From an uncultured Chloroflexia bacterium (lineage in GTDB: Bacteria > Chloroflexota > Limnocylindria > Limnocylindrales > CSP1-4), in contig CAWAHN010000016.1 of assembly GCA_963781845.1 (NCBI GenBank), positions 147,409-211,408 on the forward strand: DNA of 64,000 bases. Reading direction: 5' to 3'. The position numbers and the translations under genes are program-made. Below, piece after piece: positions 7,493-28,408 of this stretch. Within the stretch, counting starts at the first letter, position 1, and each line of letters opens with the position of its first letter. Under the pieces are notes generated by a model. It was not told the DNA's origin. It searched no databases and worked only from the letters and a program-made list of their open reading frames with translations.

Positions 7493-7648
7493 GCCACGAC
7501 CGGCACGGGACCGACGGTCGGCACGGGACCGACTGTCGCCCGGACGACAGGCGGCCTGTCTCTCCACCGGCTGACCGGCCACCGACGCGGGTCTACGGTT
7601 CGTCGTGACCTTCCCGACAGGGAGCAGGACCCCCGGAGGACCACCACG

Positions 7649-8326
7649 ATGACCGCCACGAGCAGCGCCGCCGACCAGACCTTCACCGTCGTCATCGATG
7701 ACGACGAGGCTCTGATGGCCGAGGGACGGATCCGTCGGATCGACGCCGGCCCGACCTGGGCGAAGCACCGTGTCCGGATCGTGCTCGATGACGACCAGGA
7801 CACGAGCGGGCACGCGAGCGCTTCGGACCTGGCGGTCAGCCTCCGGTTCGAGGACGACGTCGAGGGCCACGCCCTCAGCCTCCACTTCCCGAACGCCCAG
7901 AAGGCCGACGAGTTCCGCAAGCGGCTCCTGGCCGGCGGCGTCGTGGCCGGCGCGCTCATCGTCGGTGTGACCGCGGCGCAGCTGTCGGCCGGCGCCCCGA
8001 CCACATCGGTGGCGGCTCCCGCTCCGATCGTCGCCCCGGCGGCCGGGCCGATCGCACAACCCCTGACCAATCCGCGGATCCCGGCCACGGATCTGGCGCC
8101 GATCGCGGCACCGGTCGCGGCGCCGATCGCCGAGCCGGCGACCAACCCGCGGATCCCGGCCGAGGACCTGTCACCCATCGTGGCTCCGGTCGCGGCGCCG
8201 ATCGCCGAGCCGGCGACCAACCCGCGGATCCCGGCCGAGGATCTCGCACCGTCGAGCTCGAAGGTGGCCCCGGTCACCCCGGCGACGGCACCCACGGACT
8301 CCAGCCAGTTCCGACGCGGCAAGTAG
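7649..8326 (+). CDS. Single-pass membrane protein: N-domain with two D-x-[ES]-G-H motifs, one TM helix, Pro/Ala-rich 25-aa repeats
   Basis: GGAGGA lies 8 nt upstream of the ATG. Motifs DDQDTSGH and EDDVEGH. TM helix LLAGGVVAGALIVGVTAAQL. About three copies of APIAEPATNPRIPAEDLxPIxAPVA. Confidence 0.7.
   Translation: MTATSSAADQTFTVVIDDDEALMAEGRIRRIDAGPTWAKHRVRIVLDDDQDTSGHASASDLAVSLRFEDDVEGHALSLHFPNAQKADEFRKRLLAGGVVAGALIVGVTAAQLSAGAPTTSVAAPAPIVAPAAGPIAQPLTNPRIPATDLAPIAAPVAAPIAEPATNPRIPAEDLSPIVAPVAAPIAEPATNPRIPAEDLAPSSSKVAPVTPATAPTDSSQFRRGK
8030..8245 (+). repeat. 75-bp in-frame tandem repeat, about 2.8 copies
   Basis: CCGCGGATCCCGGCC recurs at 8072, 8147 and 8222, a period of 75 bp (25 codons). 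Confidence 0.85.
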
Positions 8327-8410: not shown

Positions 8411-10771
8411 TCAGGCGGTCGTCCCGCCGAGGGTCCGTTCGGGGCGCGCGTCGAAGCCGCGCAGACGAAGCGAGTTGAGCACGACGCTGACGGACGACAA
8501 CGCCATCGCCCCCGCTGCCATCGCCGGGTCGAGCGTGATCCCGAACGCGGGGTAGAGGACCCCCATGGCCACCGGGATCAGCAGCACGTTGTAGCCGAAC
8601 GCCCAGAACAGGTTCTCGCGGATGACACGCATGGTCTGCCGCGACAGGGCGATCGACGACCCGACGAGGCGCGGGTCGCCGCCGACCAGCGTGACGTCCG
8701 AGGCCTCGATGGCGACGTCCGCCCCGGTCCCGATCGCGATGCCCAGATCGGCCTGAGCGAGGGCCGGGGCGTCGTTGATCCCGTCCCCGACCATGGCGAC
8801 CCGGCGCCCGACGATCTGGAGCGTCTCGATCGCCTCGGCCTTGCCACCGGGAAGGACGTCGGCCAGAACGCGGTCCGGGCGGATGCCGACCTGGCGCGCG
8901 ACGGCCTCGGCCGTGGCTCGCGCGTCCCCGCTGACGATCCATGCGTCGATCCCGCGGACGGCCAGGGCTCGGACCGCGTCGGCCGCTTCGGGACGGACCG
9001 GGTCCGCGATGACGATCAGGCCGGCCGCGCGACCGTCGACGCCGACGAACACCGACGTCCGCCCGTCGGCTTCGGCGCGGCCCCGCGGGTCGGCCAGCTC
9101 CGCCAGGTCGACCCCGTGATCGCTCATCAGCCGGGCGCTCCCGATGAGCACCTTGTGCGACCCGCCGGAGGGCGACCCCACGTCGCCCTGGACCCCGTAC
9201 CCGACCGATGCCTCGAAGCCGACGACGGTGCGGAACCCGAGCTCGCGCTCCCGACCCGCCGACAGGATCGCCGCGCCGACCGGGTGCTCGCTGCCCTTCT
9301 CGAGCGACGCGGCCAGGTCGAGCACCTCCGACTCGTCGAAGCCGGTCGCCGCCACGATCGACGCCAGCGCGGGACGCCCGAGCGTCAGCGTCCCCGTCTT
9401 GTCGAAGACGACGGTGTCGATCCGGCCGGCGGACTCGAGCGCCTCGCCGCCCCGGATGAGGATCCCCGCCTCCGCCCCGCGACCCGTCCCGACCATGATC
9501 GCGGTCGGCGTCGCCAGGCCCATCGCGCACGGGCAGGCGATGACCACGACCGTCACGAACGCGGTGAGGGCGTGGGTCACGCTCGGAGCGGGCCCGAGCG
9601 CGAGCCAGACGACGAAGGCGAGCGCGCCGAGGCCGAGGACGAGCGGGACGAACACCTCGCTGATGCGGTCGACCATCCGCTGGATCGGGGCCTTGCTGCC
9701 CTGAGCACGTCGGACCATGTCGACGATCCGGGCCAACGCGGTGTCCGCACCGACCCGGGTCACGCGGAAGACGAACGTCCCGGTCCGGTTCAGCGTCGCG
9801 CCGATGACCTCGTCCCCGATGACCTTGTCGACCGGCAGCGCCTCTCCGGTCAGCATCGACTCATCGACCGCCGACGACCCGTCGACGACGATCCCGTCGA
9901 TCGGGACCTTCTCACCCGGTCGGACTCGGACCAGATCGCCCGGTCGGAGCTCGGCCAGCTCGACGTCGAGGTCTCCGTCGGGCCCCACGCGACGGGCCGT
10001 CTTCGCCCCGAGGCTCACCAGGCTGCGGATGGCCCCGGCGGTCCGGCTCTTCGCCCGTGCCTCCAGCCACCGGCCGAGCAGGACGAGACCGATGATGATC
10101 GTCGACGAGTCGAAGTAGGTCACCGGATCGAGTCCGGCCGCGACGAAGACCTGCGGGAAGAGCGTCACGAACACGCTGAAGGCCCACGCGGCGCTCGTCC
10201 CGGCGACCACGAGGCTGTCCATGTTCGCCGAGCCGTGCCGGAGCGCCCGCCAGGCCGCCCGGTAGAAGACGCCACCGGCCCAGACCTGGATGAACGTCGC
10301 CGGGAACAGGACGACCAGATTGATGGTCTCCATCGGCACGGCCGTCTGGGGCCAGAACGTCACGAGCATGATCCCGAGGGCGACGGCGATCGACACCCCG
10401 GAGCGGATGGCCAGGGCACGCTGGGTCCGCGCCCGCTCGAGATCGTCGGCGGCCATGGTCGCGTCGACCGCCTCGATCGCCGCGTCCGCCGGCGCCTCGT
10501 CGGTGCCCGCCTTGAGGTCGTAGCCGGCAGCCTCGATCGCCCCGACCAGGTCGGCGCGCGATGCGACGTCGGGCAGATAGCGGATCGTGGCGACCTCGGT
10601 CGCCAGGTTGACCGCCGCGACCTCGACGCCTGGCGTCCGAGTGAGGAACCGCTCGATCCGGTTGACGCACGATGCACAGGTCATCCCGGCGATCGGCAGG
10701 GCGATCTCGATCGAACCCGCGGATCGCTCCACGTCGGCGGTGGGTAGGGTGGTCGGAGTCGAGGTCGACAT
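8411..10771 (-). CDS. copA: Copper-translocating P1B-type ATPase
   Basis: N-terminal HMA motif [12 protein letters not shown], the CPC motif in [18 protein letters not shown] and [10 protein letters not shown]. 786 aa. Confidence 0.92.
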
Positions 10772-10786
10772 ACTCCCAGGGAGTAT
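10770..10786. promoter_or_regulatory. Palindromic operator ATACTCCC-A-GGGAGTAT abutting the copA start codon
   Basis: Perfect 8-1-8 inverted repeat. The minus strand reads TATACTCCCTGGGAGTATG, a -10-like TATACT 10 nt before the ATG. Near-identical site at 51312-51328. Confidence 0.55.
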
Positions 10787-10881
10787 AGCATGAGTGGTCC
10801 GCGCCCCAGCCTCGTCGCGGTACGCTTCGCGGGCGATCGCCGGCCCATGCCGGGCGATCGGTCATCGAAGCCGGAGGCCGG

Positions 10882-11481
10882 ATGATCGGGATCGGCGCGG
10901 TCGAGGCGCCATGGGGGCCGGTGCACGTCGCCGCGGATGCGGACGGCGTGATCGCCCTCGAGGTCCTGACCACGCCCGCTGCGTTCGAAGCGTCGGTGCG
11001 GCGTCGCCGGCCCGGTGAGCCGATCGCCGAGGATGCCCGGCACGCGCTCGATCCGCCGGTCCGGCGTCAGCTCGTCGCCGCCGTCGACGCCGTGGAGGCG
11101 TATCTCGACGGACAGCCGGACCGTCTCGCGGCCCTGCGCTATGCGCTTCACGGTCTGACCGACTGGGACCGCCTCGTCCTCGGCGGCGTGCGAGCCATCC
11201 CGTGCGGCGAGGTGACCAGCTACGGACGGCTGGCCGAGCGGATCGGCCGACGAGGCAGCGCCCGCGCGGTCGGCGGCGCCGTCGGCCGGAACCCGATCGG
11301 TCTGGTCGTGCCCTGCCACCGGGTCATCGCCGGCGACGGCTCGCTCGGCGGCTACGGCGGGTCGTGGCTCGGCGACCGCGACGCCCTGCTGGCGATCAAG
11401 CGCACGCTGCTGACCCTCGAAGGCGCCTGGACCGGCACGGGGACTGTCGGGTGGACGACGTTCGGAGCGCGGCACGGGTGA
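10882..11481 (+). CDS. ogt: Methylated-DNA-protein-cysteine methyltransferase
   Basis: Active-site motif PCHRVI, plus SYGRLAERIGRRGSARAVGGAVGRNPIGLVVPCHRV. Confidence 0.85.
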   Translation: MIGIGAVEAPWGPVHVAADADGVIALEVLTTPAAFEASVRRRRPGEPIAEDARHALDPPVRRQLVAAVDAVEAYLDGQPDRLAALRYALHGLTDWDRLVLGGVRAIPCGEVTSYGRLAERIGRRGSARAVGGAVGRNPIGLVVPCHRVIAGDGSLGGYGGSWLGDRDALLAIKRTLLTLEGAWTGTGTVGWTTFGARHG

Positions 11482-11556
11482 CTTCCCGACCACGGCCCGG
11501 GGCGCCTAGACTCGGACGTGCGACGGTGCGGTCGCGAGCCCGACGAGGAGACCCCG

Positions 11557-11742
11557 ATGACCGAACCCAAGGATCAGCCGGCGAACCCGACCGACGAGGA
11601 CGACACCTCCGGTCACTCGTTCGGCGACGAATACGCGCGGCAGCATGCCAATCAGAAGGCCCGCGAAGCCGACACCTGGGCGATGAAGCAAGCGCTCCGC
11701 AAGCAGGTCAAGAGCCCGCTCGACCGACTCCGCGGGCGCTGA
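11557..11742 (+). CDS. Small acidic protein with one DEDDTSGH motif and a KSP element (61 aa)
   Basis: GAGGAG lies 6 nt upstream of ATG 11557. MTEPKDQPANPTDEDDTSGHSFGDEYARQHANQKAREAD..RKQVKSPLDRLRGR. The tail aligns with the tail of the 16404-17021 protein. Confidence 0.6.
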   Translation: MTEPKDQPANPTDEDDTSGHSFGDEYARQHANQKAREADTWAMKQALRKQVKSPLDRLRGR

Positions 11743-11758: not shown

Positions 11759-13471
11759 GTGAGCGTCCTTCACGCCTACCGGGGCCTCCTCTCGAACCGT
11801 CCGCTGGTCCGCCTCCTCGGCGGGGAGTTCGTCAGCTCGATCGGCGACTGGCTGTACCTCGTCGCCCTGCTGATCGTCGTCTACGACGTCAGCGCCGACC
11901 CGATCATCCTCGGGATCGTCGGCGCTGCCCGGATCCTGCCCTACGTCCTTCTGTCGATCCCGGCCGGGATCATCGCCGATCGCTTCGAGCGTCGGCTCGT
12001 CCTGCTCGTCACCGACGTCGCGCGCGGGGTGATCATGGTCGCGATGGCCTGGCTCGTCGCGATCGACGGTCCGCTCCTGGCGATCGTCGGATTGGCCGTC
12101 CTCGCGACCTGCTTCTCGTGCTTCTTCGGCCCGACGATCGGCGCCTACCTGCCGACCCTGGTCCGCGACGAGAACGAGCTCGGGCCGGCGAACAGCGCCT
12201 GGTCGACGCTCGACAATCTCGCGTTCGTGATCGGGCCGGCTGTCGCCGGGCTGCTGATCGCCGCGAGCGGCCTGACCCTCGCCTTCGTGCTCAACGCGAT
12301 CTCGTTCGCGATCGTCGCCGTCGTCCTGTGGCGCCTGCCACGCGAGTACGGGAAGGGTGCCGAGCCGGCGGCAGCTGACCTGAGCCGGACGGAGGCCGTC
12401 GGGGCCGGGACCGATGACGCCACCGTGGCCGCGTCCCCCGGTGCACCGTCGACGGGACCGGGCACGGGCACGGTCGCGCGGGGGTCGCTCGTCCCGCTGG
12501 CCGGGCTCGCGCTCATCGACACGGTCGCCGGCTTCGTGTTCGGCGGCCTCGGCGTACTGACCGTCATCATCGCCGTCGACCAGCTCGGTGCGAGCGAGGC
12601 GGCGACCGGCTACCTCAATGCCGCGATCGGGATCGGCGGCATCCTCGGGGCGATCGGCTCGTCGGCATTCGTCGTCCGCCCCGCGCTCCGCGTGCCGCTG
12701 GTCATCGGCTCGGTCGGCCTGGCCGTCGGCGTCGGCGCGCTCGGTCTGTCGTCGAGTCTCGGGCCCGCGCTCATCGCGATGGCCATCGCCTCGGCGGGGA
12801 GCCTCCTGACCGAGGTGGTCAGCACGACCATCTTCCAGCGGACGATCCCCGATGTGATCCGGGGCCGAGCGCTCGGGACCATCGCGACGATCTCGACGCT
12901 GGCCTACGCGGCCGGCTCGCTCGTCCTGCCGGTCGCCGCGGATGTCGTCGGGATCAGCGAGGTCCTGCTCGTGTCGGGCGGCCTGGTCGTGGTCGGGTCG
13001 CTCGTCGCCGTCGCGTTGATCGGCTCTGCCGGCGACCACGGTCCGTCGGCCGAGCTGACGACCGCCGCCGAGCGCGTCGCCATCCTCCCGGTCTTCGCCG
13101 GCGTGCCCGCCTCGCGCCTGGCCCAGGCGTTCGCGCGTGCGATCGAGCTCGACGTCGCGACCGGCACCGTCGTCATCCGCCAGGGTGATCCGGCCGATCG
13201 GTTCTACGTCATCCTCGCCGGCGCATTCGACGTCGACCGAGCGGAGACGGCCGATACGGCCCCGGTCAGGCTGCGGACGATGGGCCCGGACGAGGTCTTC
13301 GGCGAGATCGGGCTCCTGACCGGGTCGGCGCGGACGGCGACCGTCACGGCGACGAGCGACGGCCGCCTGCTGGCCCTCGACGCTCCGGTATTCCTCGAGC
13401 TCGTCGCGTCGGCGGCGGAGGTCGGACCGCGATTGCTCGCCATCCATCGCGGCGGAGCGGCCACCGGCTGA
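11759..13471 (+). CDS. MFS transporter fused to a C-terminal cyclic-nucleotide-binding domain
   Basis: About 410 aa of multi-TM MFS-like sequence. This is followed by RFYVILAGAFDV..GPDEVFGEIGLLTGSARTATVTA, the canonical cNMP-binding beta-barrel signature. Confidence 0.8.
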   Translation: MSVLHAYRGLLSNRPLVRLLGGEFVSSIGDWLYLVALLIVVYDVSADPIILGIVGAARILPYVLLSIPAGIIADRFERRLVLLVTDVARGVIMVAMAWLVAIDGPLLAIVGLAVLATCFSCFFGPTIGAYLPTLVRDENELGPANSAWSTLDNLAFVIGPAVAGLLIAASGLTLAFVLNAISFAIVAVVLWRLPREYGKGAEPAAADLSRTEAVGAGTDDATVAASPGAPSTGPGTGTVARGSLVPLAGLALIDTVAGFVFGGLGVLTVIIAVDQLGASEAATGYLNAAIGIGGILGAIGSSAFVVRPALRVPLVIGSVGLAVGVGALGLSSSLGPALIAMAIASAGSLLTEVVSTTIFQRTIPDVIRGRALGTIATISTLAYAAGSLVLPVAADVVGISEVLLVSGGLVVVGSLVAVALIGSAGDHGPSAELTTAAERVAILPVFAGVPASRLAQAFARAIELDVATGTVVIRQGDPADRFYVILAGAFDVDRAETADTAPVRLRTMGPDEVFGEIGLLTGSARTATVTATSDGRLLALDAPVFLELVASAAEVGPRLLAIHRGGAATG

Positions 13472-13618
13472 TCCGGGTGTCGCCCAGGCGACGCTCGGAC
13501 CGTCGCACGTCGGTCTGCCGCCGCGTCGGCGCGCGGTGTACGGTTGCCGACGGGTGGACAGGACCGCGGTCCATCCGATCTCGGTCGACCGAGGCCGCGC
13601 GGCCGGCAGGAGGCTTCG

Positions 13619-13834
13619 ATGCCAGAGCACGACGACACCAAGGCACCCGGGATGATGTCCCGGATCGACGACGACGACGTCGAGGGCCACGGCGGGCACG
13701 TCAAGTCGCCCCGAGCGACCGAAGACGACGTCGAGGGCCACGGCGGGCACGTCAAGTCGCCCCGAGCGACCGAGGACGACGACGTCGAGGGACATTTCGG
13801 ACAGCTCAAGAGCCCGTCCAGCCGCGGCGAGTAG
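13619..13834 (+). CDS. Small repeat protein, three DVEGH units (71 aa)
   Basis: GGCAGGAGG lies upstream of ATG 13619. MPEHDDTKAPGMMSRIDDDDVEGHGGHVKSPRATEDDVEGHGGHVKSPRATEDDDVEGHFGQLKSPSSRGE. Confidence 0.7.
   Translation: MPEHDDTKAPGMMSRIDDDDVEGHGGHVKSPRATEDDVEGHGGHVKSPRATEDDDVEGHFGQLKSPSSRGE
13670..13795 (+). repeat. 51-bp in-frame tandem repeat (2 copies plus a 54-bp variant), paralogous to the 16.7-17.0 kb array
   Basis: GACGTCGAGGGCCAC occurs at 13676 and 13727, and a variant at 13781. The unit is roughly 90% identical by eye to the reverse complement of the 51-bp unit at 16701. Confidence 0.8.
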
Positions 13835-13874: not shown

Positions 13875-14702
13875 TCAGCCGCCCGGCCGCGCCCCGTTGG
13901 AGACGGCCGCCAGGATCGCCTTGACCTCGAACGGCGTCGCCCCCGGATGCTTCGCGCGGATGAGCGCGGCGAGGCCCGCGACGTGCGGGGCGGCGAAGCT
14001 GTTGCCGGTCGCGACCATCCGCGAGCCGTCCTTCCAGGCGACGTCCACGTCGACGCCGTACGCCCCGAACTCCACCGGCGGGCTCGGGTTGTAGAACCAC
14101 GTCCAGCGGTCCGGGATGTCGTGGGCCGCCACGGAGATGACCGACGCGAAGAGCGAGGGATAGCTCGGCCCCGGGACGTTGTTGGCGGCACTCACCAGGA
14201 CCACGTTCGCGAAGTACGCCTCGTCGACGATCTCGTGGAACACGGCGAACATGGCGTCGCTCTTCGACGACAGGCTGAGATTGATGACCGACGCCCCCTG
14301 GGCGACGGCCCACTCGAGTCCGGCCGCGAAGATCGAGCCCTTGCCCCGGTTGTCGGGTCCGAGGACGCGCACGGAGATGATGTCGGCACCCGGTGCCAGC
14401 CCGTGGATGATCCCCGCGCAGGCGGTGCCGTGACCGACGACGTCGATCGCCTCGGGATCGTCCACGACGACCGGATCCTCCTCGCCGGGCTCGACCCGGA
14501 CGCTTCGGATGAGCTTGCCCCCGACCGCCGGGTGGTCGCGCTCGACGCCGGAGTCGACGATGGCGACGGTCACGCCGGTCCCGTCGACGCCGCCGAAGGC
14601 CGTCTCGCGATCGATCCCCGCGATCGGCACGGACCGGTCGAGGGCGCCGCGCCGCTCCCCGATGAAGGGCTCGCTCCAGGCGGGCAGGTATGGATCGGTC
14701 AA
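13875..14702 (-). CDS. S8-family subtilisin-like serine peptidase with no obvious signal peptide
   Basis: Catalytic triad contexts AIVDSGV, GHGTACAG and GNSFAAPHVAG. The start is proposed at TTG 14702, which overlaps the GAF gene stop as TTGA. The ORF stays open up to 14861. Confidence 0.8.
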   Translation of the reverse strand: MTDPYLPAWSEPFIGERRGALDRSVPIAGIDRETAFGGVDGTGVTVAIVDSGVERDHPAVGGKLIRSVRVEPGEEDPVVVDDPEAIDVVGHGTACAGIIHGLAPGADIISVRVLGPDNRGKGSIFAAGLEWAVAQGASVINLSLSSKSDAMFAVFHEIVDEAYFANVVLVSAANNVPGPSYPSLFASVISVAAHDIPDRWTWFYNPSPPVEFGAYGVDVDVAWKDGSRMVATGNSFAAPHVAGLAALIRAKHPGATPFEVKAILAAVSNGARPGG

Positions 14703-15547
14703 CGGTCGTCGAGGCGCGGATCCGGGGCCATCCGCCCGCGTCGGCGCGACCGGACGTCGCGCTCGGCCTGGCGAGCCAGGGCGGCCAACAGGTCGGTCAC
14801 CAGCTCGAGCCGATCCGGGTCGACGCCGCGGATCCGGGCGACCTGCTCGACGAGCGTCCACAGATGCGAATCGTCGTCGCGGCCGAGCCCATCGGTCGCC
14901 GCCAGGACGAGCTCGTCGAGCGCGGCCTCCGTGACGGGATCCGTGCGATCGTCGTCGGACGTCGACGCCAGCTCGGCGAGCGTCGCGCGGAGCAGCCCGG
15001 CCAGGTCGCGCTCCACCCGGCTGGCCCGGATCGCGACGGCCGCCTGCCGGGCGAAGACGCCGGCCAGCTCGATGTCCCGCAGCGAGAACGCCGCCTGGCT
15101 GCGCTTGTCGAGGACCTCGAGGACGCCGATCGTGCCGTGGTCGTCGACCAGGGGGACGGCGACGATCGAGCGCGGCACGTACGCCGTCTTCTCGGCGACC
15201 GTCCGCCCGAAGCGCGGATCGCTCGCGACGTCCGACAGGGCGAGCGCCTGGCCCGACGTGTAGACGTAGCCGGCGATCCCCTGGTCGGGCCGGATCGCGA
15301 CCCCGATGACGCCCTGGCCCTGCTGGCCCGCCGCGACCTCGAAGACCAGCCGATCGGTGGCGGCGTCGTACAGCGCGATCGAGGCGGCCTCGGCCTCGAA
15401 CAGGGCCACGGTCGCCTCCACGACGGAACGGAGCACGGCCCGGGCGGAGCCGATCTCCAGGCGACGAGCGACATCGCCCCGGAGGGCGATGCGCTGCAGG
15501 AGTCCGACGGCCTCCGGACCGAGGGTCGGGGGCCGATCGTCAGTCAT
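14699..15547 (-). CDS. GAF-domain protein with a C-terminal helical extension
   Basis: ASIALYDAATDRLVFEVAAGQQG..GIAGYVYTSGQALALSDVASDPRF..SIVAVPLVDDHGTIGVLEVLDK. Confidence 0.75.
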   Translation of the reverse strand: MTDDRPPTLGPEAVGLLQRIALRGDVARRLEIGSARAVLRSVVEATVALFEAEAASIALYDAATDRLVFEVAAGQQGQGVIGVAIRPDQGIAGYVYTSGQALALSDVASDPRFGRTVAEKTAYVPRSIVAVPLVDDHGTIGVLEVLDKRSQAAFSLRDIELAGVFARQAAVAIRASRVERDLAGLLRATLAELASTSDDDRTDPVTEAALDELVLAATDGLGRDDDSHLWTLVEQVARIRGVDPDRLELVTDLLAALARQAERDVRSRRRGRMAPDPRLDDR

Positions 15548-15553
15548 CGCCGG

Positions 15554-16252
15554 TCATCGTTCGGCGGCGCGAGCGAGGCGATCCAGGTCGGGGATGATGA
15601 GCGCGTCGCGCTCGAGTCGCACCAGGTCCTGGGCGGTCATGTCGGCGAGCAGTCGATTGACCGTCTGACGTGTCCCGCCGATCATCGCGGCGAGGTCGCT
15701 CTGGGTGAATGGCCAATCGAGCCGGATGTCCTTCGTGACGCCGGGTTGCGCCTCGCGCGCGAGCCGGACGATGCGACTGGCGAGCCGCCCGGGCAGATCG
15801 AGGAAGTGCAGCTCCTCGACGTGGCCGGTCAACCGACGGAGCTCGGTCACCAGGCCGGCGAACAGGGCCTTGCGGAGCTGCGGCTGGGTCTCGACGAGGT
15901 CCTCGAAGCGATCGCGACGAAGGACGAGGGCCTCGGTCGACTCGATCGCGACCGCGGTCGCCGAGTGCGGGGCCCCATCGAGCAGGGCGAGCTCGCCGAA
16001 GAAGTCGCCGCGCATCAGGGTCGCGATGATCGCACCCTCCTCGCCCTCGGGTGATGGCAGGACGATCTTGACCGAGCCGGATTCGATGATGTAGAGCGAG
16101 TCGCCCGGGTCGCCCTGATGGAAGATGATCTCGTTCTTGCGGTAGCGCCGGACCCGGAGCGAGGAGGCGCACAGCTCGAGCGTCCCGTCGTCGACCTTGG
16201 CGAACAGCGCGCAGCGGCGCAGCGCCTCGACCGCGAACTCCGACTCGCTCAT
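15554..16252 (-). CDS. Crp/Fnr-family transcriptional regulator (cNMP-binding domain plus HTH)
   Basis: IIFHQGDPGDSLYIIESGSVKI..GDFFGELALLDGAPHSATAVA, with the C-terminal HTH QSDLAAMIGGTRQTVNRLL. GGAGGA lies upstream of ATG 16252. The ORF is open to 16288. Confidence 0.85.
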   Translation of the reverse strand: MSESEFAVEALRRCALFAKVDDGTLELCASSLRVRRYRKNEIIFHQGDPGDSLYIIESGSVKIVLPSPEGEEGAIIATLMRGDFFGELALLDGAPHSATAVAIESTEALVLRRDRFEDLVETQPQLRKALFAGLVTELRRLTGHVEELHFLDLPGRLASRIVRLAREAQPGVTKDIRLDWPFTQSDLAAMIGGTRQTVNRLLADMTAQDLVRLERDALIIPDLDRLARAAER

Positions 16253-16377
16253 CGATCCTCCGTTGACCGGTCCGTCGACACGTGGCACATCGTAGTCGGC
16301 ACCCGGCGGGCAGTCGAGGCGGGAATCAACGAGGCGGCGCCGGTCGGCGTCGCCTCGTCTTCGAGCCTGGTCCGGGT

Positions 16378-16403: not shown

Positions 16404-17021
16404 TCACTTCTTGTGCGGTCGGCTCGCCTCGCGGGCCTCGTGGTTGCGCAGGTTGCGCTGGATGTCCTGCTCCCGCGCCCGAGCCAGGTGCTGGCTCAGC
16501 ACGGGGTTGCCGTACATGTGGCCTTCGGCATCGTCCTCGCCGTCCTCGATCGCGCGGCGCTTCCGATGTCCCTCGACATCCTCCTCGCCATCGTCGATCG
16601 CGCGGCGCTTCCGATGTCCCTCGACATCCTCCTCGCCATCGTCGATCGCGCGGCGCTTCCGATGTCCCTCGACGTCGTCGTCTTCGGTCGCTCGGGGCGA
16701 CTTGGTGTGCCCGCCGTGGCCTTCGACGTCGTCGTCGGTCGCTCGCGGCGACTTGGTGTGCCCGCCGTGGCCTTCGACGTCGTCGTCGGTCGCTCGCGGC
16801 GACTTGGTGTGCCCGCCGTGGCCTTCGACGTCGTCGTCGGTCGCTCGCGGCGACTTGGTGTGCCCGCCGTGGCCTTCGACGTCGTCGTCGGTCGCTCGCG
16901 GCGACTTGGTGTGCCCGCCGTGGCCTTCGACGTCGTCGTCGGTCGCTCGCGGCGACTTGGTGTGCCCGCCGTGGCCTTCGACGTCGTCGTCGGTCGCTCG
17001 CGGGGTCTGCTTGTTCGACAT
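16404..17021 (-). CDS. Acidic His-rich tandem-repeat protein with 10 D-[VA]-E-G-H units (205 aa)
   Basis: AGGAGA lies 7 nt upstream of ATG 17021. Six copies of TDDDVEGHGGHTKSPRA, three of DVEGHRKRRAIDDGEE, then DDAEGHMYGNPVLSQHLARAREQDIQRNLRNHEAREASRPHKK. Confidence 0.75.
   Translation of the reverse strand: MSNKQTPRATDDDVEGHGGHTKSPRATDDDVEGHGGHTKSPRATDDDVEGHGGHTKSPRATDDDVEGHGGHTKSPRATDDDVEGHGGHTKSPRATDDDVEGHGGHTKSPRATEDDDVEGHRKRRAIDDGEEDVEGHRKRRAIDDGEEDVEGHRKRRAIEDGEDDAEGHMYGNPVLSQHLARAREQDIQRNLRNHEAREASRPHKK
16541..16690 (-). repeat. 48-bp in-frame tandem repeat, about 3 copies
   Basis: GATCGCGCGGCGCTTCCGATGTCCCTCGAC occurs at 16547, 16595 and 16643. Confidence 0.85.
16684..17003 (-). repeat. 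51-bp in-frame tandem repeat, about 6 copies
   Basis: CTTGGTGTGCCCGCCGTGGCC occurs at 16701, 16752, 16803, 16854, 16905 and 16956. Five consecutive units read as identical. Confidence 0.9.
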
Positions 17022-17159
17022 CGTGATCTCCTATCGGCTGCCCGGACTTCGGCTCTTGTCATCGAGCCAGGCCATCTTGCGCTGGCGGCCGACCGACCGT
17101 CCAGCGTGTCGTGTGACGCTGAGAGTGTCGGACAGGCGACGTTCCTCGAGCGGGCGAGC

Positions 17160-17816
17160 TCAGCCGCGGGTGACCGGACGCATCGGGTAGACCCCGACCA
17201 CGATCGGCGCGACGGGATCGAGCTGGAGCTCGTAGCCGACCTCTCCGCCGCGGAGCAGCTCGCCGAGCATGAGGCCCTCGCGTTCCGGCAGCCCGACGAA
17301 GATCCGGCCGGGCGGGACGTCGATCCCGGTCACGTCGTCATCCTCAGCCGCGATCAGGAACCGGCGGCGGATCTCATGCATCGGGATGTACGCACGACTC
17401 TTGATGAAGCGCCGGAGCTGGGCGGTCGTGCACGTGCCGTGACGTTCGCCGGAGGGTGGCGGGGAACCCGCCCCGATCGGGGTCGTCGTCCGGGCGCCCG
17501 CGGGCGGCATGGACGCCGCCGGCGTCGGGGAGGTCGCATCGACGCGCGGCTCGGGAGCCGGGACCGCGACCGGCGTGGCGACCTGGGGGGTCGACGCAGC
17601 CGGATCCAGGTGAGCGTCGACGTCACCCCCGCCGACCTGCGCACGCGCCGAGGCCTGGTCGACGTCGAGCGTCGATCGGCCCGGATCGACATCCGCCGCA
17701 GCCGCGGTCGAGCTCGGTGCGGCGGGCCGCGCGACCCGCGTGGGATCGTGGGGGCGTGGTCCGCCACGGTGGTCCGGATGCCGCGGGCGGCCGCCACGGC
17801 CGGTCCGGCGGCTCAC
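17160..17816 (-). CDS. Hypothetical protein: low-complexity N-part, conserved-looking C-domain
   Basis: C-terminal about 100 aa: CTTAQLRRFIKSRAYIPMHEIRRRFLIAAEDDDVTGIDVPPGRIFVGLPEREGLMLGELLRGGEVGYELQLDPVAPIVVGVYPM. Alternative start at ATG 17510. Confidence 0.4.
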   Translation of the reverse strand: MSRRTGRGGRPRHPDHRGGPRPHDPTRVARPAAPSSTAAAADVDPGRSTLDVDQASARAQVGGGDVDAHLDPAASTPQVATPVAVPAPEPRVDATSPTPAASMPPAGARTTTPIGAGSPPPSGERHGTCTTAQLRRFIKSRAYIPMHEIRRRFLIAAEDDDVTGIDVPPGRIFVGLPEREGLMLGELLRGGEVGYELQLDPVAPIVVGVYPMRPVTRG

Positions 17817-19158: not shown

Positions 19159-19565
19159 CTGGCGGATCCCGTGGGATGCGATGCAGACGGTGTGGCGGGT
19201 TCCGGCAGGTGCAGCCAGGCCGCCATGGTGCGCGGTCCGTCCTCGAACAGCTTGCTGTACGCATACACGCGCGCGGCCCCGGCGGCGAGCGCGCGTTTCC
19301 GGGCGGCGAGATCCTCGTGCGGGCCGACCGCCACCACCGGGACGCCCGCGGCCGCCGCATCGGCGACGGCGACGATCGGGTCGGCCCGTCGAAGCGACAG
19401 ATCGACGAGCGCGGCGTCCGCGCCGCGAAGCGCGTCGGCGAACAGCTCAGCGGTCGCGACCACGGTCGGCGCGGCGCCGGCGGCCCGGGCGATCGATGCG
19501 AGGCGCGTGGCCCAGATGAGGTCGTCGGCCAGGACCGCGAGTCCCGGCGGCCGACCCTCGGTCAC
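19155..19565 (-). CDS. Stand-alone receiver (CheY-like) domain protein, tentative
   Basis: VLADDLIW..AALVDLSL..VVAVGPH..KRALAAGAARVYAYSKL. The GTG start overlaps the upstream stop as GTGA. Confidence 0.4.
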   Translation of the reverse strand: MTEGRPPGLAVLADDLIWATRLASIARAAGAAPTVVATAELFADALRGADAALVDLSLRRADPIVAVADAAAAGVPVVAVGPHEDLAARKRALAAGAARVYAYSKLFEDGPRTMAAWLHLPEPATPSASHPTGSAR

Positions 19566-20065
19566 CCGATGACCTCGAGGAGGTGCCCGAACAGGTTGCG
19601 GGCCTGGACCAGCCCGACCAGCCGCCCGTCCTCGACGATCGGGATGTGGCGGAACCCACCGACCGCCATCTTGTGCAGCGCGACCGCGGTCGTGTCGTCG
19701 TGACGCAGGACGACCGGATCCGGGGTCATCAGCGCGTCCACCACCATCCCCTCGATCGACCGTCGGCTCAGCTTCACGATCGCGTCCTGGTAGGTCACGA
19801 TGCCACGCACCCGGTCGCCGTCGACGACGAGCACGCACTCGAGCCCGTCGTCCTTCATCCGGGCGATGGCCGCACGAGCGCTGGTCCCGGCGACGACCGT
19901 CGGCGGGATCTCGATGCCGAGCGTGTCCAGGTGCTCGCCGAGGAGGCGGCCGTGGAAGTCGACGGCGTCCTGGGGCACGTCGAGCGTGCGCAGATCCGCG
20001 CCGCATTCCTCGCAGGAATCCTCACCCGGGTAGTTGCCGTGGCCGCACGATGGGCACCGGATCAC
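19562..20065 (-). CDS. Zinc-ribbon plus CBS-pair domain protein
   Basis: CPSCGHGNYPGEDSCEECG, followed by two CBS-like modules (VLVVDGDRVRGIVTYQD; IPIVEDGRLVGLVQARN). Confidence 0.75.
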   Translation of the reverse strand: MIRCPSCGHGNYPGEDSCEECGADLRTLDVPQDAVDFHGRLLGEHLDTLGIEIPPTVVAGTSARAAIARMKDDGLECVLVVDGDRVRGIVTYQDAIVKLSRRSIEGMVVDALMTPDPVVLRHDDTTAVALHKMAVGGFRHIPIVEDGRLVGLVQARNLFGHLLEVIG

Positions 20066-21141
20066 GCCGTCACCTCCCAGGTCTCGCCCCCGTCGAGGAG
20101 GGTCCGGAGGTCGCCGACGCCGCGCTTCGCGACGGCCTCCTCCAGCTGGGCGCTGAGCAGCTCGTCATGGGTCGGTCGCTTGACATCGAGGATCACGCCC
20201 ACGGGGACGGGGAACTCGGGCCAGTAGATCCGACTGAGCATGTAGGCGATCAGCGGGTCGCTCTCGTCGTGGACGAGCAGGTCCGCCTCGGTCACGCCGT
20301 CGACGCCGAGCGTGACGATCTCCGGCTGGTGCCCGACCAGGCGGATCCCGCGGTCCCGGTCCTTGCCGAAGATCATCGGCCGACCGTGCTCGAGGATCAG
20401 CATCCGGTCCTCGCGGACCTCGCGGTCGGTGAAGTCGCGGTGCGCGCCGTCGTTGAAGATGTTGCAGTTCTGGAGGACCTCGAGGAAGACCGAGCCCTTG
20501 TGCCGGCCGACCCGATCGAGCGTCGCCTGGAGGTGCTCGGTGTGGGTGTCGACCGATCGGGCGATCAGGCTGGCCTCGGCGGCCAGCGCGATCGTCAACG
20601 GGCTGATCGGGTTGTCGACCGTGCCGGCCGGCGTGGACTTGGTGATCTTGCCGAACTCGGAGGTCGGCGACGCCTGGCCCTTGGTCAACCCGTAGATCCG
20701 GTTGTTGAACATGACGACCTTGATGTCGACGTTCCGGCGCATCGAGTGGAGCAGGTGGTTGCCACCGATCGACAGGGCGTCGCCGTCACCGGTGATGACC
20801 CAGACCATGAGGTCGGGCCGGGCCGCCTTGAGGCCGGTCGCCAGGGTGGTGGCGCGACCGTGGATGCTGTGGAACCCGTAGGTGTTCATGTAGTACGGGA
20901 GCCGGCCCGAGCAGCCGATCCCGCTGATGAACACGATGTTCTCCTTGGCGTAACCGAAGTCGGGCATCACCTTCTGGGTCTGGGCCAGGATCGAGTAGTC
21001 CCCGCAGCCGGGACACCAGCGGACCTCCTGGTCGGAAACGAAGTCCTTGCGGGTGAGCGGCACGGCGGCCTGGAGCTGCTGGAGGACGCGATCGTTCTCG
21101 GGGCTCAGCGGCGCATCGGCGCCGAGGGTCGGTTCGGTCAT
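20062..21141 (-). CDS. korB: 2-oxoacid:ferredoxin oxidoreductase, beta (TPP-binding) subunit
   Basis: RWCPGCGDYSIL, GIGCSGR and ITGDGDALSIGGNH. Confidence 0.88.
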   Translation of the reverse strand: MTEPTLGADAPLSPENDRVLQQLQAAVPLTRKDFVSDQEVRWCPGCGDYSILAQTQKVMPDFGYAKENIVFISGIGCSGRLPYYMNTYGFHSIHGRATTLATGLKAARPDLMVWVITGDGDALSIGGNHLLHSMRRNVDIKVVMFNNRIYGLTKGQASPTSEFGKITKSTPAGTVDNPISPLTIALAAEASLIARSVDTHTEHLQATLDRVGRHKGSVFLEVLQNCNIFNDGAHRDFTDREVREDRMLILEHGRPMIFGKDRDRGIRLVGHQPEIVTLGVDGVTEADLLVHDESDPLIAYMLSRIYWPEFPVPVGVILDVKRPTHDELLSAQLEEAVAKRGVGDLRTLLDGGETWEVTA

Positions 21142-23006
21142 CGTGGGGCCTCCCGGTCGTCGAGCAGGCGGACGGCCTCCTCCTCGATCTCGGCGATCCG
21201 GAACGGCTTGCCCCGGACCCGGTCGTAGCCGACCGCGTCGATCAGGTAGCGCGCCCGGATGAGGAGCAGCAACTGGCCCAGGTTGACCTCGGGGATGAGC
21301 ACCCGACGGTAGCTCCGGACCACGTCACCGGTGTTGCGCGGGAACGGGTTGAGATGGCGGAGGTGCGCGTGCGCCACGCTCCGGCCCTGCGCCTGGAGCC
21401 GCTCGACCGCGCTGCGGATGGCGCCGTAGGTCGACCCCCAGCCCAGGATGAGGAGATCGCCGCGATCGGGGCCGTAGACCTCCAGGTCCGCGATGTCGTC
21501 GGCGATCCGGGCGATCTTCTCGGCCCGCAGGAGCTGCATCCGGTGATGGTTGTCCGGGTCGTAGCTGACGTTGCCGGTCACGTCGGCCTTCTCGAGTCCG
21601 CCGATCCGGTGCTCGAGGCCGGGCGTTCCCGGGACCGCCCACGGGCGCGCCAGCGTGACCGGGTCCCGCGAGTACGGCTGGAACCCGGCCCGATCGGTCC
21701 GGTTGGGGACGGAGATGTCGGGCAGGTCGTCGACGCTCGGGATGGCCCACGGCTCCGAGCCGGTCGCGAGGAACGCGTCCGACAGGTAGACCACGGGGGT
21801 CATCGAGCGGAGCGCGATCCGCACCGCCTCGAACGCCATGTCGAAGCAGTCACCGGGCGTCGCCGGCGCCACGACCGCGATCGGCGAGTCGCCGTTCCGC
21901 CCGAACATCACCTGGAGCAGGTCCGATTGCTCGTTCTTGGTCGGCATCCCGGTCGAGGGACCCGCCCGCTGCACATCGATCACGATGAGCGGGAGCTCGA
22001 CCATCACCGCCAGGTTCATCGCCTCGCTCTTCAGGGCGATCCCCGGTCCCGATGTCCCGGTCATCCCGAGGGCCCCACCGTAGCTCGCCCCGATGGCCGA
22101 CCCGATCGCGGCGATCTCGTCTTCGGCCTGGAAGGTCGTGACCCCGAAGTCCTTGTAGCCCGACAGCTGATGGAGGATCTCGCTGGCCGGCGTGATCGGG
22201 TACGAGCCATAGAACAGCGGGCGGGAGGCCTTCCGGGAGGCGACGACGAACCCGAGGGCGGTCGCCTCGTTGCCGGTGATGTTCCGGTACCGGCCGGGTG
22301 GGAGGTGAGCCGGAGCGACCCGGTAGTGGGTGTGGAAGATCTCGGTCGTCTCGCCGAACGCGTAGCCGGCCTTGAGGGCTCGGGCGTTGGCCTCGGCGAT
22401 CACCGGGCGCTTGCCGAACTTCTGGTCGATCCACTGGAGGGTCGGCTCCATGCTCCGCTCGTAGAGCCAGAACATGATCCCGAGGGCGAAGAAGTTCTTG
22501 GTCAGGTCGACCTGCTTGGTGGTCATCTCCAGGCCGGCCAGGGCCCGGGTGTTGAGGGTCGAGATCGGGATCTCGAACAGCGTGAACGGCTTGAGCGAAC
22601 CGTCGGTCAACGGATTTGTCCCGTAGCCGACCTTCTGCAGGTTCGGACCGGTGAACGCATCGGTGTTGACGATCAGGGCGCCACCCGGCGGGAGATCGCC
22701 GATATTGGCCTTGAGCGCGGCCGGGTTCATCGCGACGAGGACGTCGGGTTCGTCGCCGGGGGTGTGGATGTCCGAGCTCGAGAAGCTGATCTGGAAGCCG
22801 GACACGCCGGGCAACGAGCCGGCGGGCGCGCGGATCTCGGCCGGGAAATCGGGCAACGTGCTGATGTCGTTCCCGAAGACGGCCGCGGTCCGCGTGAACT
22901 GGGTGCCCGTGACCTGCATCCCGTCGCCGGAATCACCGGCGAACCGGATCGTGACCCGTTCGAGCTCCTGGGTCGGGACGTCGCGTTCCGTGGTCGGGGT
23001 CGTCAC
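21138..23006 (-). CDS. korA: 2-oxoacid:ferredoxin oxidoreductase, alpha subunit (fused gamma-alpha type)
   Basis: 622 aa. FAGDSGDGMQVTG and YPITPASEILH. 4-nt overlaps with both neighbouring genes. Confidence 0.88.
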   Translation of the reverse strand: MTTPTTERDVPTQELERVTIRFAGDSGDGMQVTGTQFTRTAAVFGNDISTLPDFPAEIRAPAGSLPGVSGFQISFSSSDIHTPGDEPDVLVAMNPAALKANIGDLPPGGALIVNTDAFTGPNLQKVGYGTNPLTDGSLKPFTLFEIPISTLNTRALAGLEMTTKQVDLTKNFFALGIMFWLYERSMEPTLQWIDQKFGKRPVIAEANARALKAGYAFGETTEIFHTHYRVAPAHLPPGRYRNITGNEATALGFVVASRKASRPLFYGSYPITPASEILHQLSGYKDFGVTTFQAEDEIAAIGSAIGASYGGALGMTGTSGPGIALKSEAMNLAVMVELPLIVIDVQRAGPSTGMPTKNEQSDLLQVMFGRNGDSPIAVVAPATPGDCFDMAFEAVRIALRSMTPVVYLSDAFLATGSEPWAIPSVDDLPDISVPNRTDRAGFQPYSRDPVTLARPWAVPGTPGLEHRIGGLEKADVTGNVSYDPDNHHRMQLLRAEKIARIADDIADLEVYGPDRGDLLILGWGSTYGAIRSAVERLQAQGRSVAHAHLRHLNPFPRNTGDVVRSYRRVLIPEVNLGQLLLLIRARYLIDAVGYDRVRGKPFRIAEIEEEAVRLLDDREAPR

Positions 23007-23503
23007 GCGCCCTCGGTCTCCTTCATCCGCTGGTGAGGTCGTGGCGGCAGGTTGAGCAGCTCTTCCGGGAAGGCCTCGGCGAGGTACTTGAGGAGATCCT
23101 GCTGGCGGACGATCCCGACGACCCGACCGTCGTCGTCGACCAGGGGGACGTTCCGAAAGCGGCCGTCGGCGAACAGGGCGATCGCCTCGTGGACCGTCTG
23201 TTCGAGGCGCAGCGTCCGGGGTGTCCGGTTCATCAGCGTCTCGACCGGCGCGTCGAGGTCGATCTCGCCGCCGACGATGACCTTGAAGATGTCACGCTCC
23301 GTGAGGACGCCGCGGAGGACCCCGTCGGGGGTCGTGACGACGACCGAGTCCCCGATCCCGGACCCCTCGACCAAGCTCAGGCAGCTCCCGAGCGAGGTGC
23401 CTTCGACGACGGTCAGCGGGTCGCGTCGATTGACGACCCGGAGCGTCTCGCGAGCGAGGGACGGGACGCGCGCGGAGACGGCGCGTTCGGTGAGCTCAGC
23501 CAC
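23003..23503 (-). CDS. CBS-pair domain protein
   Basis: VVVTTPDGVLRGVLTERDIFK and VPLVDDDGRVVGIVRQQDLLK. Confidence 0.75.
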   Translation of the reverse strand: MAELTERAVSARVPSLARETLRVVNRRDPLTVVEGTSLGSCLSLVEGSGIGDSVVVTTPDGVLRGVLTERDIFKVIVGGEIDLDAPVETLMNRTPRTLRLEQTVHEAIALFADGRFRNVPLVDDDGRVVGIVRQQDLLKYLAEAFPEELLNLPPRPHQRMKETEGA

Positions 23504-23598
23504 GCCTCGAAGTGTAGTCCGTTCCCGCCGCGATGCGGCTCGGCGGAAGGCCGCGGCGGCCGCGACGGGGAGGCGTTCGGCCCTGCTAGGCTCGGGCC

Positions 23599-24564
23599 GT
23601 GGATCGCCAGCGGCTGGTCGGGGTCGGGCTCGTGCTCGTCTCGGCGGCCTCCTTCGGGTCGGGTGCCCTGTTCGCCAAGTCCGTCTACGGCGCCGGCGTC
23701 GATTGGCTCACCCTGCTGTCGTGGCGGTTCCTGATCGGCGCCGGCCTCGCCTGGGCCTGGCTGCTCGTCTCCCCGGAGCGACGGGCCGGCCTGTGGCGCC
23801 TGTCGCGTCGGCGAGTGGCGATCGCGTTCGGGCTGGGCATCATCTACCTCGGCAACTCGAGCACGTACTACGCCGCCCTCGAGACGGTATCCGCGTCCCT
23901 CGCCGCGGTCATCGTCTACATCTACCCGGCGGTCGTCGCGGTCCTGTCGATCCGGATCGGGCACCGCCTCGTCGGTCGACGCCCGTGGGTCGCCCTGGCG
24001 ATGACGCTGGCCGGCGTGGCGCTCGCCCTCGGGGGCATCCCGGCCGGCGAGGTCCCACCGCTCCTCGGCCTGGTCGAGATCGTCGCGTCGCCGTTGATCT
24101 ACTCGGTCTGGATCGTCCTGTCGGCCCGCTTCGCCGGCGAGCGCACCGATCGGATCGGGATCGAGGCCGACGACGGCGCCTCCACGACCGTGGCGACCGC
24201 GTTGATGATGACCTCGACCGCGATCGGGATGTGGACGCTCGCGATCGTCTTCGGACGACCGGTCATGCCGGCCCAGATCCCCGCTGCGGCCTGGCCCGGG
24301 ATGATCGCCATCGGCTTCGTCTGCACGTTCCTGGCCATCCAGACGTTCTACGCGGGGACGCGTCGGGTGGGTGCGGCGCAGGCCTCGCTGATCTCGACCT
24401 TCGAGCCGGTCTGGACGATCACCCTGGCGTCCCTCCTCTTCGGGGAGACGCTCGGGCCGATCCAGCTCCTCGGCGGCGCTCTCGTCATCGCCGGCGTCAT
24501 CCTCGCCCAGACGTCGTCCGGACCCGTCCCCGCGAGCGTGACCCTGCGAGTCGCCGACGAGTAG
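23599..24564 (+). CDS. EamA/DMT-family transporter
   Basis: About ten hydrophobic helices arranged as two EamA-like halves. GTG start. Confidence 0.7.
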   Translation: MDRQRLVGVGLVLVSAASFGSGALFAKSVYGAGVDWLTLLSWRFLIGAGLAWAWLLVSPERRAGLWRLSRRRVAIAFGLGIIYLGNSSTYYAALETVSASLAAVIVYIYPAVVAVLSIRIGHRLVGRRPWVALAMTLAGVALALGGIPAGEVPPLLGLVEIVASPLIYSVWIVLSARFAGERTDRIGIEADDGASTTVATALMMTSTAIGMWTLAIVFGRPVMPAQIPAAAWPGMIAIGFVCTFLAIQTFYAGTRRVGAAQASLISTFEPVWTITLASLLFGETLGPIQLLGGALVIAGVILAQTSSGPVPASVTLRVADE

Positions 24565-26769: not shown

Positions 26770-26796
26770 ACGTTCCGGGTCGGCGACGCGCTCATA
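26767..26796 (+). promoter_or_regulatory. Candidate ECF-type promoter (TGAAC-N19-CTCATA) upstream of sigma gene 1
   Basis: The motif is shared with sites at 28334 and 29921. Confidence 0.3.
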
Positions 26797-26841
26797 GAGA
26801 GTGACGCCGGACCGACCGTGGTCCGGCCGACGGAGGGAGCG

Positions 26842-28268: not shown

Positions 28269-28333
28269 GGTCGACCGGATCTGGCCAACGCTGTCCAAGC
28301 GGTGCACGTCGACGGACCTTCTGACGCGAAGAT

Positions 28334-28363: not shown

Positions 28364-28408
28364 TGTGTGACGCGCCGTTCCGGGCGTGTCCGGGATGGGG
28401 AGTGGAAC

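Follow-up and report, generated by a model that had tools for sequence, protein, structure and literature searches.

Precursor proteins made of tandem cassettes with a short cleavage site, cut by a protease of the subtilisin-like S8 family (subtilases), are known from yeast, where Kex2 processes prepro-alpha-factor, and from fungal Kex2-processed repeat proteins (KEPs), and the number of cassettes in these proteins is variable. Intracellular subtilisins (ISPs) of Bacillus have neither a signal peptide nor a classical prodomain and carry a short conserved N-terminal extension; classical subtilisins require an I9 prodomain for folding and inhibition. Here we analysed a 64,000-nucleotide (nt) stretch of DNA from an uncultured Chloroflexia bacterium of the Limnocylindria (contig CAWAHN010000016.1; hereafter the window), in which a protein of 205 amino acids (aa), termed type A, consists mostly of repeated units with a DVEGH motif. 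Type A belongs to a so far undescribed family of small DDVEGH-repeat proteins, cytoplasmic and intrinsically disordered, of soil Chloroflexota and Actinomycetota. The genes encoding these motif proteins are conserved as a module together with a GAF protein and subtilase pair, a Crp/Fnr-family regulator and a transporter of the MFS type carrying a cyclic nucleotide-binding (cNMP) domain, in Limnocylindria and in many Actinomycetota. Neither the family nor the module had a characterised member in the databases and literature searched.

We tentatively read the motif proteins as Crp-controlled, disordered, multi-cassette substrates of the co-encoded subtilase with DDVEGH as its recognition site, an interpretation to which we give somewhat less than an even chance. 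Such a mechanism would most resemble the S8-processed tandem-cassette precursors (alpha-factor/Kex2, fungal KEPs and cyanobactins) but fails their defining features, because it has no secretion signal, no dibasic site, no PatA/PatG-type protease and no modifying enzymes. The window system shares with Kex2 systems a small putative precursor of tandem cassettes that each close with a conserved short site, an S8-family protease and a cassette number that varies among relatives. However, Kex2 systems use a signal peptide, dibasic KR cuts in the Golgi and a kexin with a P-domain, whereas the window system has no signal peptide, an acidic DDVEGH site, no conserved dibasic residues and a cytoplasmic bacterial subtilase of 275 aa that is coupled to a GAF protein. 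With the ISPs, the window subtilase (S8) has in common the absence of a signal peptide and of a classical prodomain as well as a short N-terminal extension (LPAWSEPF), but it belongs to a separate subfamily that occurs in Actinomycetota and Chloroflexota and occurs together with a GAF protein and motif genes. LicP and CylA are S8 proteases that cleave after the hexapeptides N-D-V-N-P-E and G-D-V-Q-A-E, respectively (PMC10885120). By sequence, DDVEGH would match these sites in Asp-Val at positions P5-P4 and a small residue at P2 (x-D-V-x-small-X), but their P1 residue is Glu and that of DDVEGH would be His; moreover, LicP and CylA are secreted preproenzymes acting on lanthionine peptides, and no lanthipeptide synthetase is encoded here.

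Translation of type A matched the description in an earlier note on this DNA of ten DVEGH-type units followed by a basic tail. The N-terminal MSNKQTPRA is followed by six copies of TDDDVEGHGGHTKSPRA, three copies of DVEGHRKRRAI(D/E)DGE(E/D), one DDAEGH and the tail MYGNPVLSQHLARAREQDIQRNLRNHEAREASRPHKK, giving ten D(V/A)EGH units (six of 17 aa, three of 16 aa and one more), and the H-G-G-H that the same note had seen within each 17-aa unit could likewise be read from the translation. Both tandem arrays in the gene (Table 1) are far above chance expectation. The frame looks coding, with a codon-position GC typical of a gene (GC3 0.87 and GC2 0.46 in a window of 71% GC), and a GGAG is located 8 nt upstream of the ATG. 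The two arrays encode DVEGH by different codons (GAC GTC GAA GGC CAC versus GAT GTC GAG GGA CAT), synonymous differences which show that the motif is maintained as protein and not as DNA. A translated tandem DNA repeat or an assembly artefact in place of a gene would fit the 99% identity of the repeat copies and the long open frames found on both strands of such GC-rich DNA. This explanation can practically be dismissed in view of the gene-like codon-position GC, the synonymous differences between the arrays, the hundreds of homologues in two phyla with divergent spacers and the same motif and tail, and the conservation of position, upstream palindrome and ribosome-binding site. In the long-read metagenome-assembled genomes L023, L091, L092, L099, L108 and L128, frameshifts split type A arrays into overlapping open reading frames (ORFs), so that repeat copy numbers and annotations are unreliable there.

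AlphaFold2 with 30 homologues predicted the type A repeats to be disordered (predicted local distance difference test score, pLDDT, < 50), which suggests that they would be accessible to a protease. The tail was predicted as a single helix (residues 173-199, pLDDT 82-95), in line with its helical look in the earlier note. A GC-rich hairpin directly 3' of the type A stop codon did not stand out from shuffled sequence (z -0.34) and has no T tract, and a consensus promoter and terminator scan was uninformative in this GC-rich DNA.

A homologue search of 5.8 billion proteins retrieved 123 type A homologues, all annotated as 'hypothetical' and none with a Pfam domain, from Chloroflexota/Limnocylindrales metagenomes, and a profile search of 1.84 billion representatives (threshold E ≤ 1e-3) yielded 508 clusters at 50% identity that are also unnamed and free of Pfam domains. 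The number of cassettes per family member ranges between 1 and about 14, and every cassette closes with the near-invariant hexapeptide [DE]-D-[VT]-E-G-H, which is embedded in the flank pattern [RK][RK]A[AT][DE][DE]D-DVEGH-[GRSA]-hydrophobic-[RK]; in the last unit, D, E, G and H are invariant among 30 aligned members. The unit period has its mode at 15-16 aa (range 13-40 aa), with spacers that vary in both sequence and length and mostly contain no Cys and few Ser/Thr, and the N-termini of the proteins are hydrophilic (e.g. MSNKQTPRA...). The segment behind the last GH comes in separate length classes, of 4-6 aa (ending in Arg/Lys and mostly from Actinomycetota), 12 aa (type B, see below) and 38-43 aa (the type A tails, with several subtypes), and the type A tail is also kept in single-unit proteins of Limnocylindria. 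Single-cassette members consist of a short leader, one EDDVEGH and a tail, a layout that by analogy is that of a propeptide junction.

How rapidly the spacers diverge is illustrated by the nearest relative (locus L210), with S8 and Crp proteins 94% and a GAF protein 87% identical to those of the window: its type A protein has the same two-array architecture, built, however, from GKGPAPRATEDDVEGH and HKHRATGDEDDADVEGH units, and GGHTKSPRAT in the window compares with GKGPAPRAT there despite the 94% identity of S8 and Crp. Types A and B, the isolated tails, the 218-aa protein of Table 1 and the C-terminus of the GAF protein were scanned against Pfam and NCBIfam, with an insignificant DUF7553 match as the sole hit, the family and its tails are without a match in Pfam, NCBIfam and PDB, and literature searches on the hexapeptide variants, on Limnocylindria subtilisin and on repeat precursors in Actinobacteria returned nothing on a DDVEGH family. 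Motif variants were also seen next to an S8 of the same subfamily in three further loci (L195, 4502..5098; L204, 2..319; L184, 2003..2485), one of them a PEVEGH cassette with Lys/Pro/Ala-rich spacers (…EPEVEGHRMKPRAKPKA…) and another a D(T/V)SGH cassette.

The association between motif and protease was found from both directions. When a DNA pattern of two motifs was run against GTDB genomes, one for each species, at least 120 loci were obtained, with matches listed from Limnocylindria, Nocardioides, Aeromicrobium, Marmoricola, Naasia, Geodermatophilus, Frankiaceae, Sporichthyaceae, Gaiellaceae, Acidimicrobiales and others. In 112 of the listed loci, which were collected through the repeat motif alone and without use of S8, an ORF with at least two D[VT]EGH was present and neighbours were sought within arbitrary 8-kb chunks. 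S8 and GAF genes were each found in 78 of these 112 loci (both in 74), a Crp gene in 82, an MFS gene in 58 and at least one of these partners in 97, with a median gap of 751 bp between motif ORF and S8 and both phyla represented. Conversely, scanning metagenome contigs with an S8 alignment returned 521 relatives, and in the best 80 of these 521 loci the density of a relaxed motif was 0.66 per kb near S8 (≤ 3 kb upstream or ≤ 1 kb downstream) versus 0.04 per kb farther off. Among S8 loci with complete flanks, 15 of 20 contained the motif. The processed-peptide role and the subtilase link suggested in the earlier note are supported in outline by these numbers, but the protease described there as adjacent is near type A without adjoining it: the Crp and GAF genes intervene.

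Besides GAF, S8, Crp and MFS, no gene family occurred in more than about a quarter of the 120 listed loci, and YcaO, radical SAM, LanM, P450 and methyltransferase genes were not recurrent among them; the comparison behind this, an all-against-all clustering of the ORFs in the neighbourhoods, lost resolution to shared cNMP domains and to read-through ORFs, and shows only the lack of wide recurrence. This result bears on the idea that type A is a multi-core precursor of a peptide that is made on ribosomes and modified after translation (RiPP), with cores chemically modified before or after cleavage by an enzyme encoded elsewhere. As in the cyanobactin-type precursor PatE, tandem conserved recognition sequences flank repeated variable segments, and a subtilase-type protease and a transporter are encoded nearby. 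The window system, however, lacks a macrocyclase or DUF domain, a heterocyclase and a conserved N-terminal leader, and its S8 scores only 31.2 bits against the PatA/PatG model TIGR03895 with its cut-off of 421. No modifying-enzyme family recurs among the 120 listed loci or among the window neighbours, and the scarcity of Cys and Ser/Thr in most spacers further makes a RiPP precursor very improbable.

In three loci of lower GC content (L203, L205 and L208; GC 0.48-0.58), the order Crp - gap - GAF - S8 is kept and DVEGH repeats are absent. In L203, a 69-aa non-repeat ORF with …GGPEVVAHAMTP… (…GPEVVAH…) is located between the Crp and GAF genes and may be a diverged single-site counterpart of the motif gene.

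A candidate for shared regulation came from the DNA upstream of the motif genes. Alignment of the region 5' of type A in six Limnocylindria loci revealed a conserved GTC-N7-CGACA block, and in the window, which contains four motif genes in total (types A, B, C and D), each of the four has a GTCG-N6-CGAC palindrome upstream of its start codon. While the 14 copies of this palindrome in the window are at chance level overall, 5 of the 14 lie upstream of the four motif genes, where about 0.18 copies would be expected in 800 nt (Poisson P about 1e-6). Across 107 listed loci, its density was 1.15 per kb within 350 nt upstream of the first motif compared to 0.14 per kb elsewhere, an 8-fold enrichment that covers both phyla and also includes motif genes standing alone without a nearby S8. 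The exact palindrome core was present in 42 of the 107 listed loci (L010-L129), and the flanks extend the site to TGTCG-N6-CGACA, which has the 5-6-5 geometry of Crp/Fnr operators. The cluster's own Crp protein would be the natural candidate to bind this palindrome.

The window Crp protein combines a cNMP-binding domain with HTH_Crp_2. In Crp-family proteins, the Arg of the PRSA motif contacts the cyclic phosphate. The window protein has PHSA instead of PRSA, and among its orthologues His was found in 22 and Arg in 21; because His replaces the phosphate-binding Arg in about half of the orthologues, the ligand is uncertain and may be one other than cAMP in half of the lineages. The S8 protein aligns from near the N-terminus of mature subtilisin BPN' (1e-27) and contains the catalytic motifs VDSG, GHGT, AANN and GNSFAAP, with D-H-N-S kept in 78 homologues, and no signal peptide, I9 propeptide or P-domain was detected in it. 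It looks active and cytoplasmic, because the four catalytic residues are kept and both signal peptide and prodomain are absent. A PDB sequence search with S8 returned only generic subtilisins. Near the N-terminus, some 35 residues ahead of the catalytic Asp, (L)PAWS(E)xF is invariant in its subfamily; by analogy, this motif may be a short regulatory extension like that of the intracellular subtilisins. The stop codon of the GAF gene and the TTG start of S8 overlap as TTGA, making the two a translationally coupled pair; Pfam and NCBIfam scans of the GAF protein C-terminus gave no significant match.

The other motif genes of the window differ from type A in architecture. Type B, which is convergent with the S8 gene (gap 40 nt), also carries H-G-G-H in its units and was found at the matching location in L001, L002, L004 and L005; its 12-aa end is conserved. 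Type C lies directly 5' of the MFS gene. Type D has an N-terminal beta domain with both DTSGH and DDVEGH, a single transmembrane (TM) helix at about residues 99-115 and a Pro-rich tail containing NPRIPAEDLAP repeats; it has 65 homologue clusters, all from Limnocylindria/Chloroflexota and none named, and D69, G73 and H74 are invariant among 30 homologues. An AlphaFold2 model of type D (pLDDT 66-85) placed the two Asp of the motif at the turn of a hairpin and VEGHALSL in a strand immediately N-terminal of an amphipathic helix and the TM helix, and a Foldseek/PDB search with this model gave no match at E < 0.1.

Table 1 Features of the DDVEGH module and its surroundings in the window. Palindrome distances are from palindrome centre to start codon.
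Feature	Position	Strand	Evidence or remark
Type A gene, DVEGH-repeat protein, 205 aa	16404..17021	-	Translation, codon-position GC, homologues
51-nt tandem array encoding TDDDVEGHGGHTKSPRA	16676..17003	-	6.4 copies, 99% matches, score 642 (Tandem Repeats Finder)
48-nt tandem array encoding DVEGHRKRRAIDDGEE	16525..16673	-	3.1 copies, 96% matches, score 270 (Tandem Repeats Finder)
Type A tail, 37 aa, MYGNPVLSQHLARAREQDIQRNLRNHEAREASRPHKK, begins right after the last GH	16407..16517	-	Conserved across Limnocylindria
Type B gene, 71 aa, 3 DVEGH units and 12-aa end FGQLKSPSSRGE	13619..13834	+	
Type C gene, 61 aa, one DDTSGH and conserved helical-looking tail	11557..11742	+	
Type D gene, 225-aa membrane-anchored protein	7649..8326	+	
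Minimal subtilase (S8), 275 aa, TTG start	13875..14702	-	PF00082 3e-30
GAF-domain protein, helical C-terminal part	14699..15547	-	PF01590 2.5e-18
Crp/Fnr-family regulator, cNMP-binding domain and HTH_Crp_2	15554..16288	-	PF00027 9.5e-30, PF13545 3e-16
MFS_3-type transporter fused to C-terminal cNMP-binding domain	11759..13471	+	PF07690 1e-31, PF05977 8e-29, PF00027 1e-18
GTCG-N6-CGAC palindrome before type A	17127..17140		112 nt before start
GTCG-N6-CGAC palindrome before type B	13479..13492		133 nt before start
GTCG-N6-CGAC palindrome before type C	11446..11459		104 nt before start
Second GTCG-N6-CGAC copy before type C	11531..11544		19 nt before start
GTCG-N6-CGAC palindrome before type D	7535..7548		107 nt before start
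218-aa protein, Pro/Ala-rich N-terminus, conserved C-terminal domain of about 95 aa (…TTAQLRRFIKSRAYIPMHEIRRRF…GVYPMRPVTRG)	17160..17816	-	
HMA P-type ATPase	8411..10861	-	

In the substrate model, the Crp-family protein would turn the motif genes on or off upon a small ligand, and the subtilase, perhaps gated by its GAF partner, would recognise DDVEGH as its cleavage site, with the type A cassette stretch ...RATDDDVEGHGGHTKS... as the proposed target. The cut would probably fall after His (P1), with Gly then at P2 and Val at P4, and would turn the precursor into short cassette peptides. In Limnocylindria, cleavage would also free conserved C-terminal pieces, namely a basic helix of 37 aa from type A, a 12-mer from type B and the type C tail, and it might detach the N-terminal domain of type D from the membrane; the released peptides could act inside the cell or leave through the MFS transporter. 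The data show the family and its motif, the gene linkage, the intact active site, the operator enrichment and the predicted disorder; cleavage, the position of the cut, regulation by the cluster's Crp, gating by GAF, export by MFS and the function of the products are all steps that we infer. Subtilases classically prefer a small hydrophobic residue at P4 and Gly at P2. A cut after His is favoured because Val and Gly would fill these two positions, because every conserved tail begins exactly after GH, because proteins without such a tail invariably retain 4-6 residues behind the last GH, as though the P' side needed to be filled, and because LicP and CylA cut after NDVNPE and GDVQAE (PMC10885120). 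Mimicry by DVEGHG of the subtilase's own active-site His motif (IDVVGHGT) was considered as well and dismissed, with no evidence for it.

Several observations weigh against the substrate model. Gene linkage alone cannot separate a substrate from a regulator or an inhibitor of the protease. In subtilase complexes, P3 is usually solvent-exposed, although the Glu at the presumed P3 of DDVEGH is invariant. The window S8 is not specifically related to LicP or CylA, its best PDB matches being generic subtilisins, and 5 of the 20 S8 loci with complete flanks have no recognisable motif gene, exceptions that include lower-GC lineages. In type D, the motif is located in a predicted beta-hairpin and would be less accessible there. 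Export by MFS is the weakest link of the proposal, as to our knowledge MFS transporters are not established as peptide exporters, and the released peptides have no assignable function.

The same linkage data would also be expected if the DDVEGH units were not substrates but short linear docking motifs for the active site of the subtilase or for the GAF protein, making the motif protein a multivalent competitive inhibitor, a decoy, a folding helper of the propeptide-less subtilase or a concentrating scaffold. The absence of an I9 prodomain from S8 is in line with this idea, as are the multivalent repeats in a disordered chain, which are typical of docking motifs, and the position of the type D motif in a folded hairpin. 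A copy number ranging from 1 to about 14 between close relatives, however, would be odd for a stoichiometric inhibitor, the conserved tails that start exactly after GH fit release better, and Pfam and NCBIfam scans showed no similarity to a known subtilisin inhibitor or propeptide. Taken with these points, we regard docking as an unlikely role for the cassettes, and retain processing by the subtilase as the preferred reading.

According to the earlier note, the H-G-G-H of type A made plausible a metal-binding role of the amino-terminal Cu(II)- and Ni(II)-binding (ATCUN) type, in a window where copper-handling genes were said to be frequent. Fragments cut after EGH would indeed start with GGH, and the H-G-G-H in each 17-mer is reminiscent of ATCUN sites, GHK and the prion octarepeats. 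As the reason for type A, however, this role is not borne out by the family: although GGH follows every EGH in six units of the window protein, it does so in no family unit outside the window, His at position +3 after EGH occurs in only 34 of 1024 distinct family units (3.3%), and H-G-G-H spacing was seen in no family member collected outside the window. Moreover, neither Pfam nor PDB gave any homology of type A to HGGGW-type prion octarepeats, the free N-terminus is hypothetical and no metal context is conserved. The copper-related genes of the window are one HMA P-type ATPase and, > 35 kb away, one cytochrome c oxidase operon with CtaG and cupredoxin domains. Judged by the spacers of its relatives, the H-G-G-H of type A is a lineage-specific local accident of a fast-evolving spacer and not the point of the family.

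A more general metal-binding role of the disordered protein would not exclude the other models. In this case, D-V-E-G-H would supply Asp (i), Glu (i+2) and His (i+4), which together with the preceding Asp residues would chelate a divalent metal, with Cu, Ni, Zn or Fe being buffered, stored or delivered and the H-G-G-H of type A providing extra Cu/Ni sites. The invariant D, E and H would face one side of an extended strand, an additional His is present within 5 residues after GH in 88 of 384 proteins (including GHK-like and KHHH units), and in the window some 700 bp separate the HMA ATPase from the edge of the cluster. Nevertheless, we consider such a role quite unlikely: Val and Gly are no less invariant than the residues that might act as ligands, x-x-H after GH is as rare as stated above and H-G-G-H is limited to the window, and the conserved partners are a protease and cNMP-type regulators, with no metal sensor or metal transporter conserved. 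The ATPase itself adjoins the cluster in only five loci. It is located between type D and an MGMT gene in the window, L001, L002 and L005 and is absent there in the nearest relative, L210, which points to insertion or loss inside an otherwise conserved synteny.

Among the remaining neighbours, the 218-aa protein was found in 12 of the 112 listed motif loci, always just 5' of type A in Limnocylindria and not in Actinomycetota loci, and it had no Pfam hit. Farther along the window, a 2-oxoacid:ferredoxin oxidoreductase pair flanked by two CBS-domain genes and an M24 peptidase gene (19562..23707, minus strand) forms an arrangement that is syntenic with the cluster in the Limnocylindria loci L001, L004, L005 and L210. 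Four genes for extracytoplasmic function (ECF)-type sigma factors lie within 10 kb on the plus strand (26770..27393, 28325..28963, 29976..30548 and 35419..36042); the ORFs 27339..28268 and 30335..31879, which follow ECF sigma genes, had no Pfam hit and may encode anti-sigma factors.

In a broader and doubtful reading, to which we still give some weight, the module would be a previously unknown ligand-gated cytoplasmic peptide-generating system in soil Actinomycetota and Chloroflexota. Here, a small-molecule signal would induce the disordered polyprecursors, a dedicated protease would cut them up at an acidic site ending in His, and the short peptides together with the conserved helical effectors would serve as intracellular or exported signals, in what would be a bacterial analogue of the processing of prohormones in eukaryotes. 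We know of no described equivalent in bacterial peptide biology, whose known examples either are secreted or belong to RiPPs that come with modifying enzymes. For annotation, hundreds of small 'hypothetical' ORFs gain a family and a genomic context. As a candidate operator of the Crp family, TGTCG-N6-CGACA would be new and would mark out a small regulon, and a defined protease recognition hexapeptide may serve, like those of LicP and CylA, as a sequence-specific cleavage tool. Several cultured carriers are among the loci found, namely Aeromicrobium panaciterrae JCM 16926 (L109), Naasia lichenicola YIM 131853 (L113), Nocardioides tweenelious CN2-186 (L075), Marmoricola sp. RAF53 (L086) and Geodermatophilus sp. 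CPCC 205761 (L014). If the proposed mechanism is true, two abundant soil phyla would share a dedicated system with Crp/GAF/cNMP-type control, in which tandem-cassette precursors are processed by a cytoplasmic subtilase.

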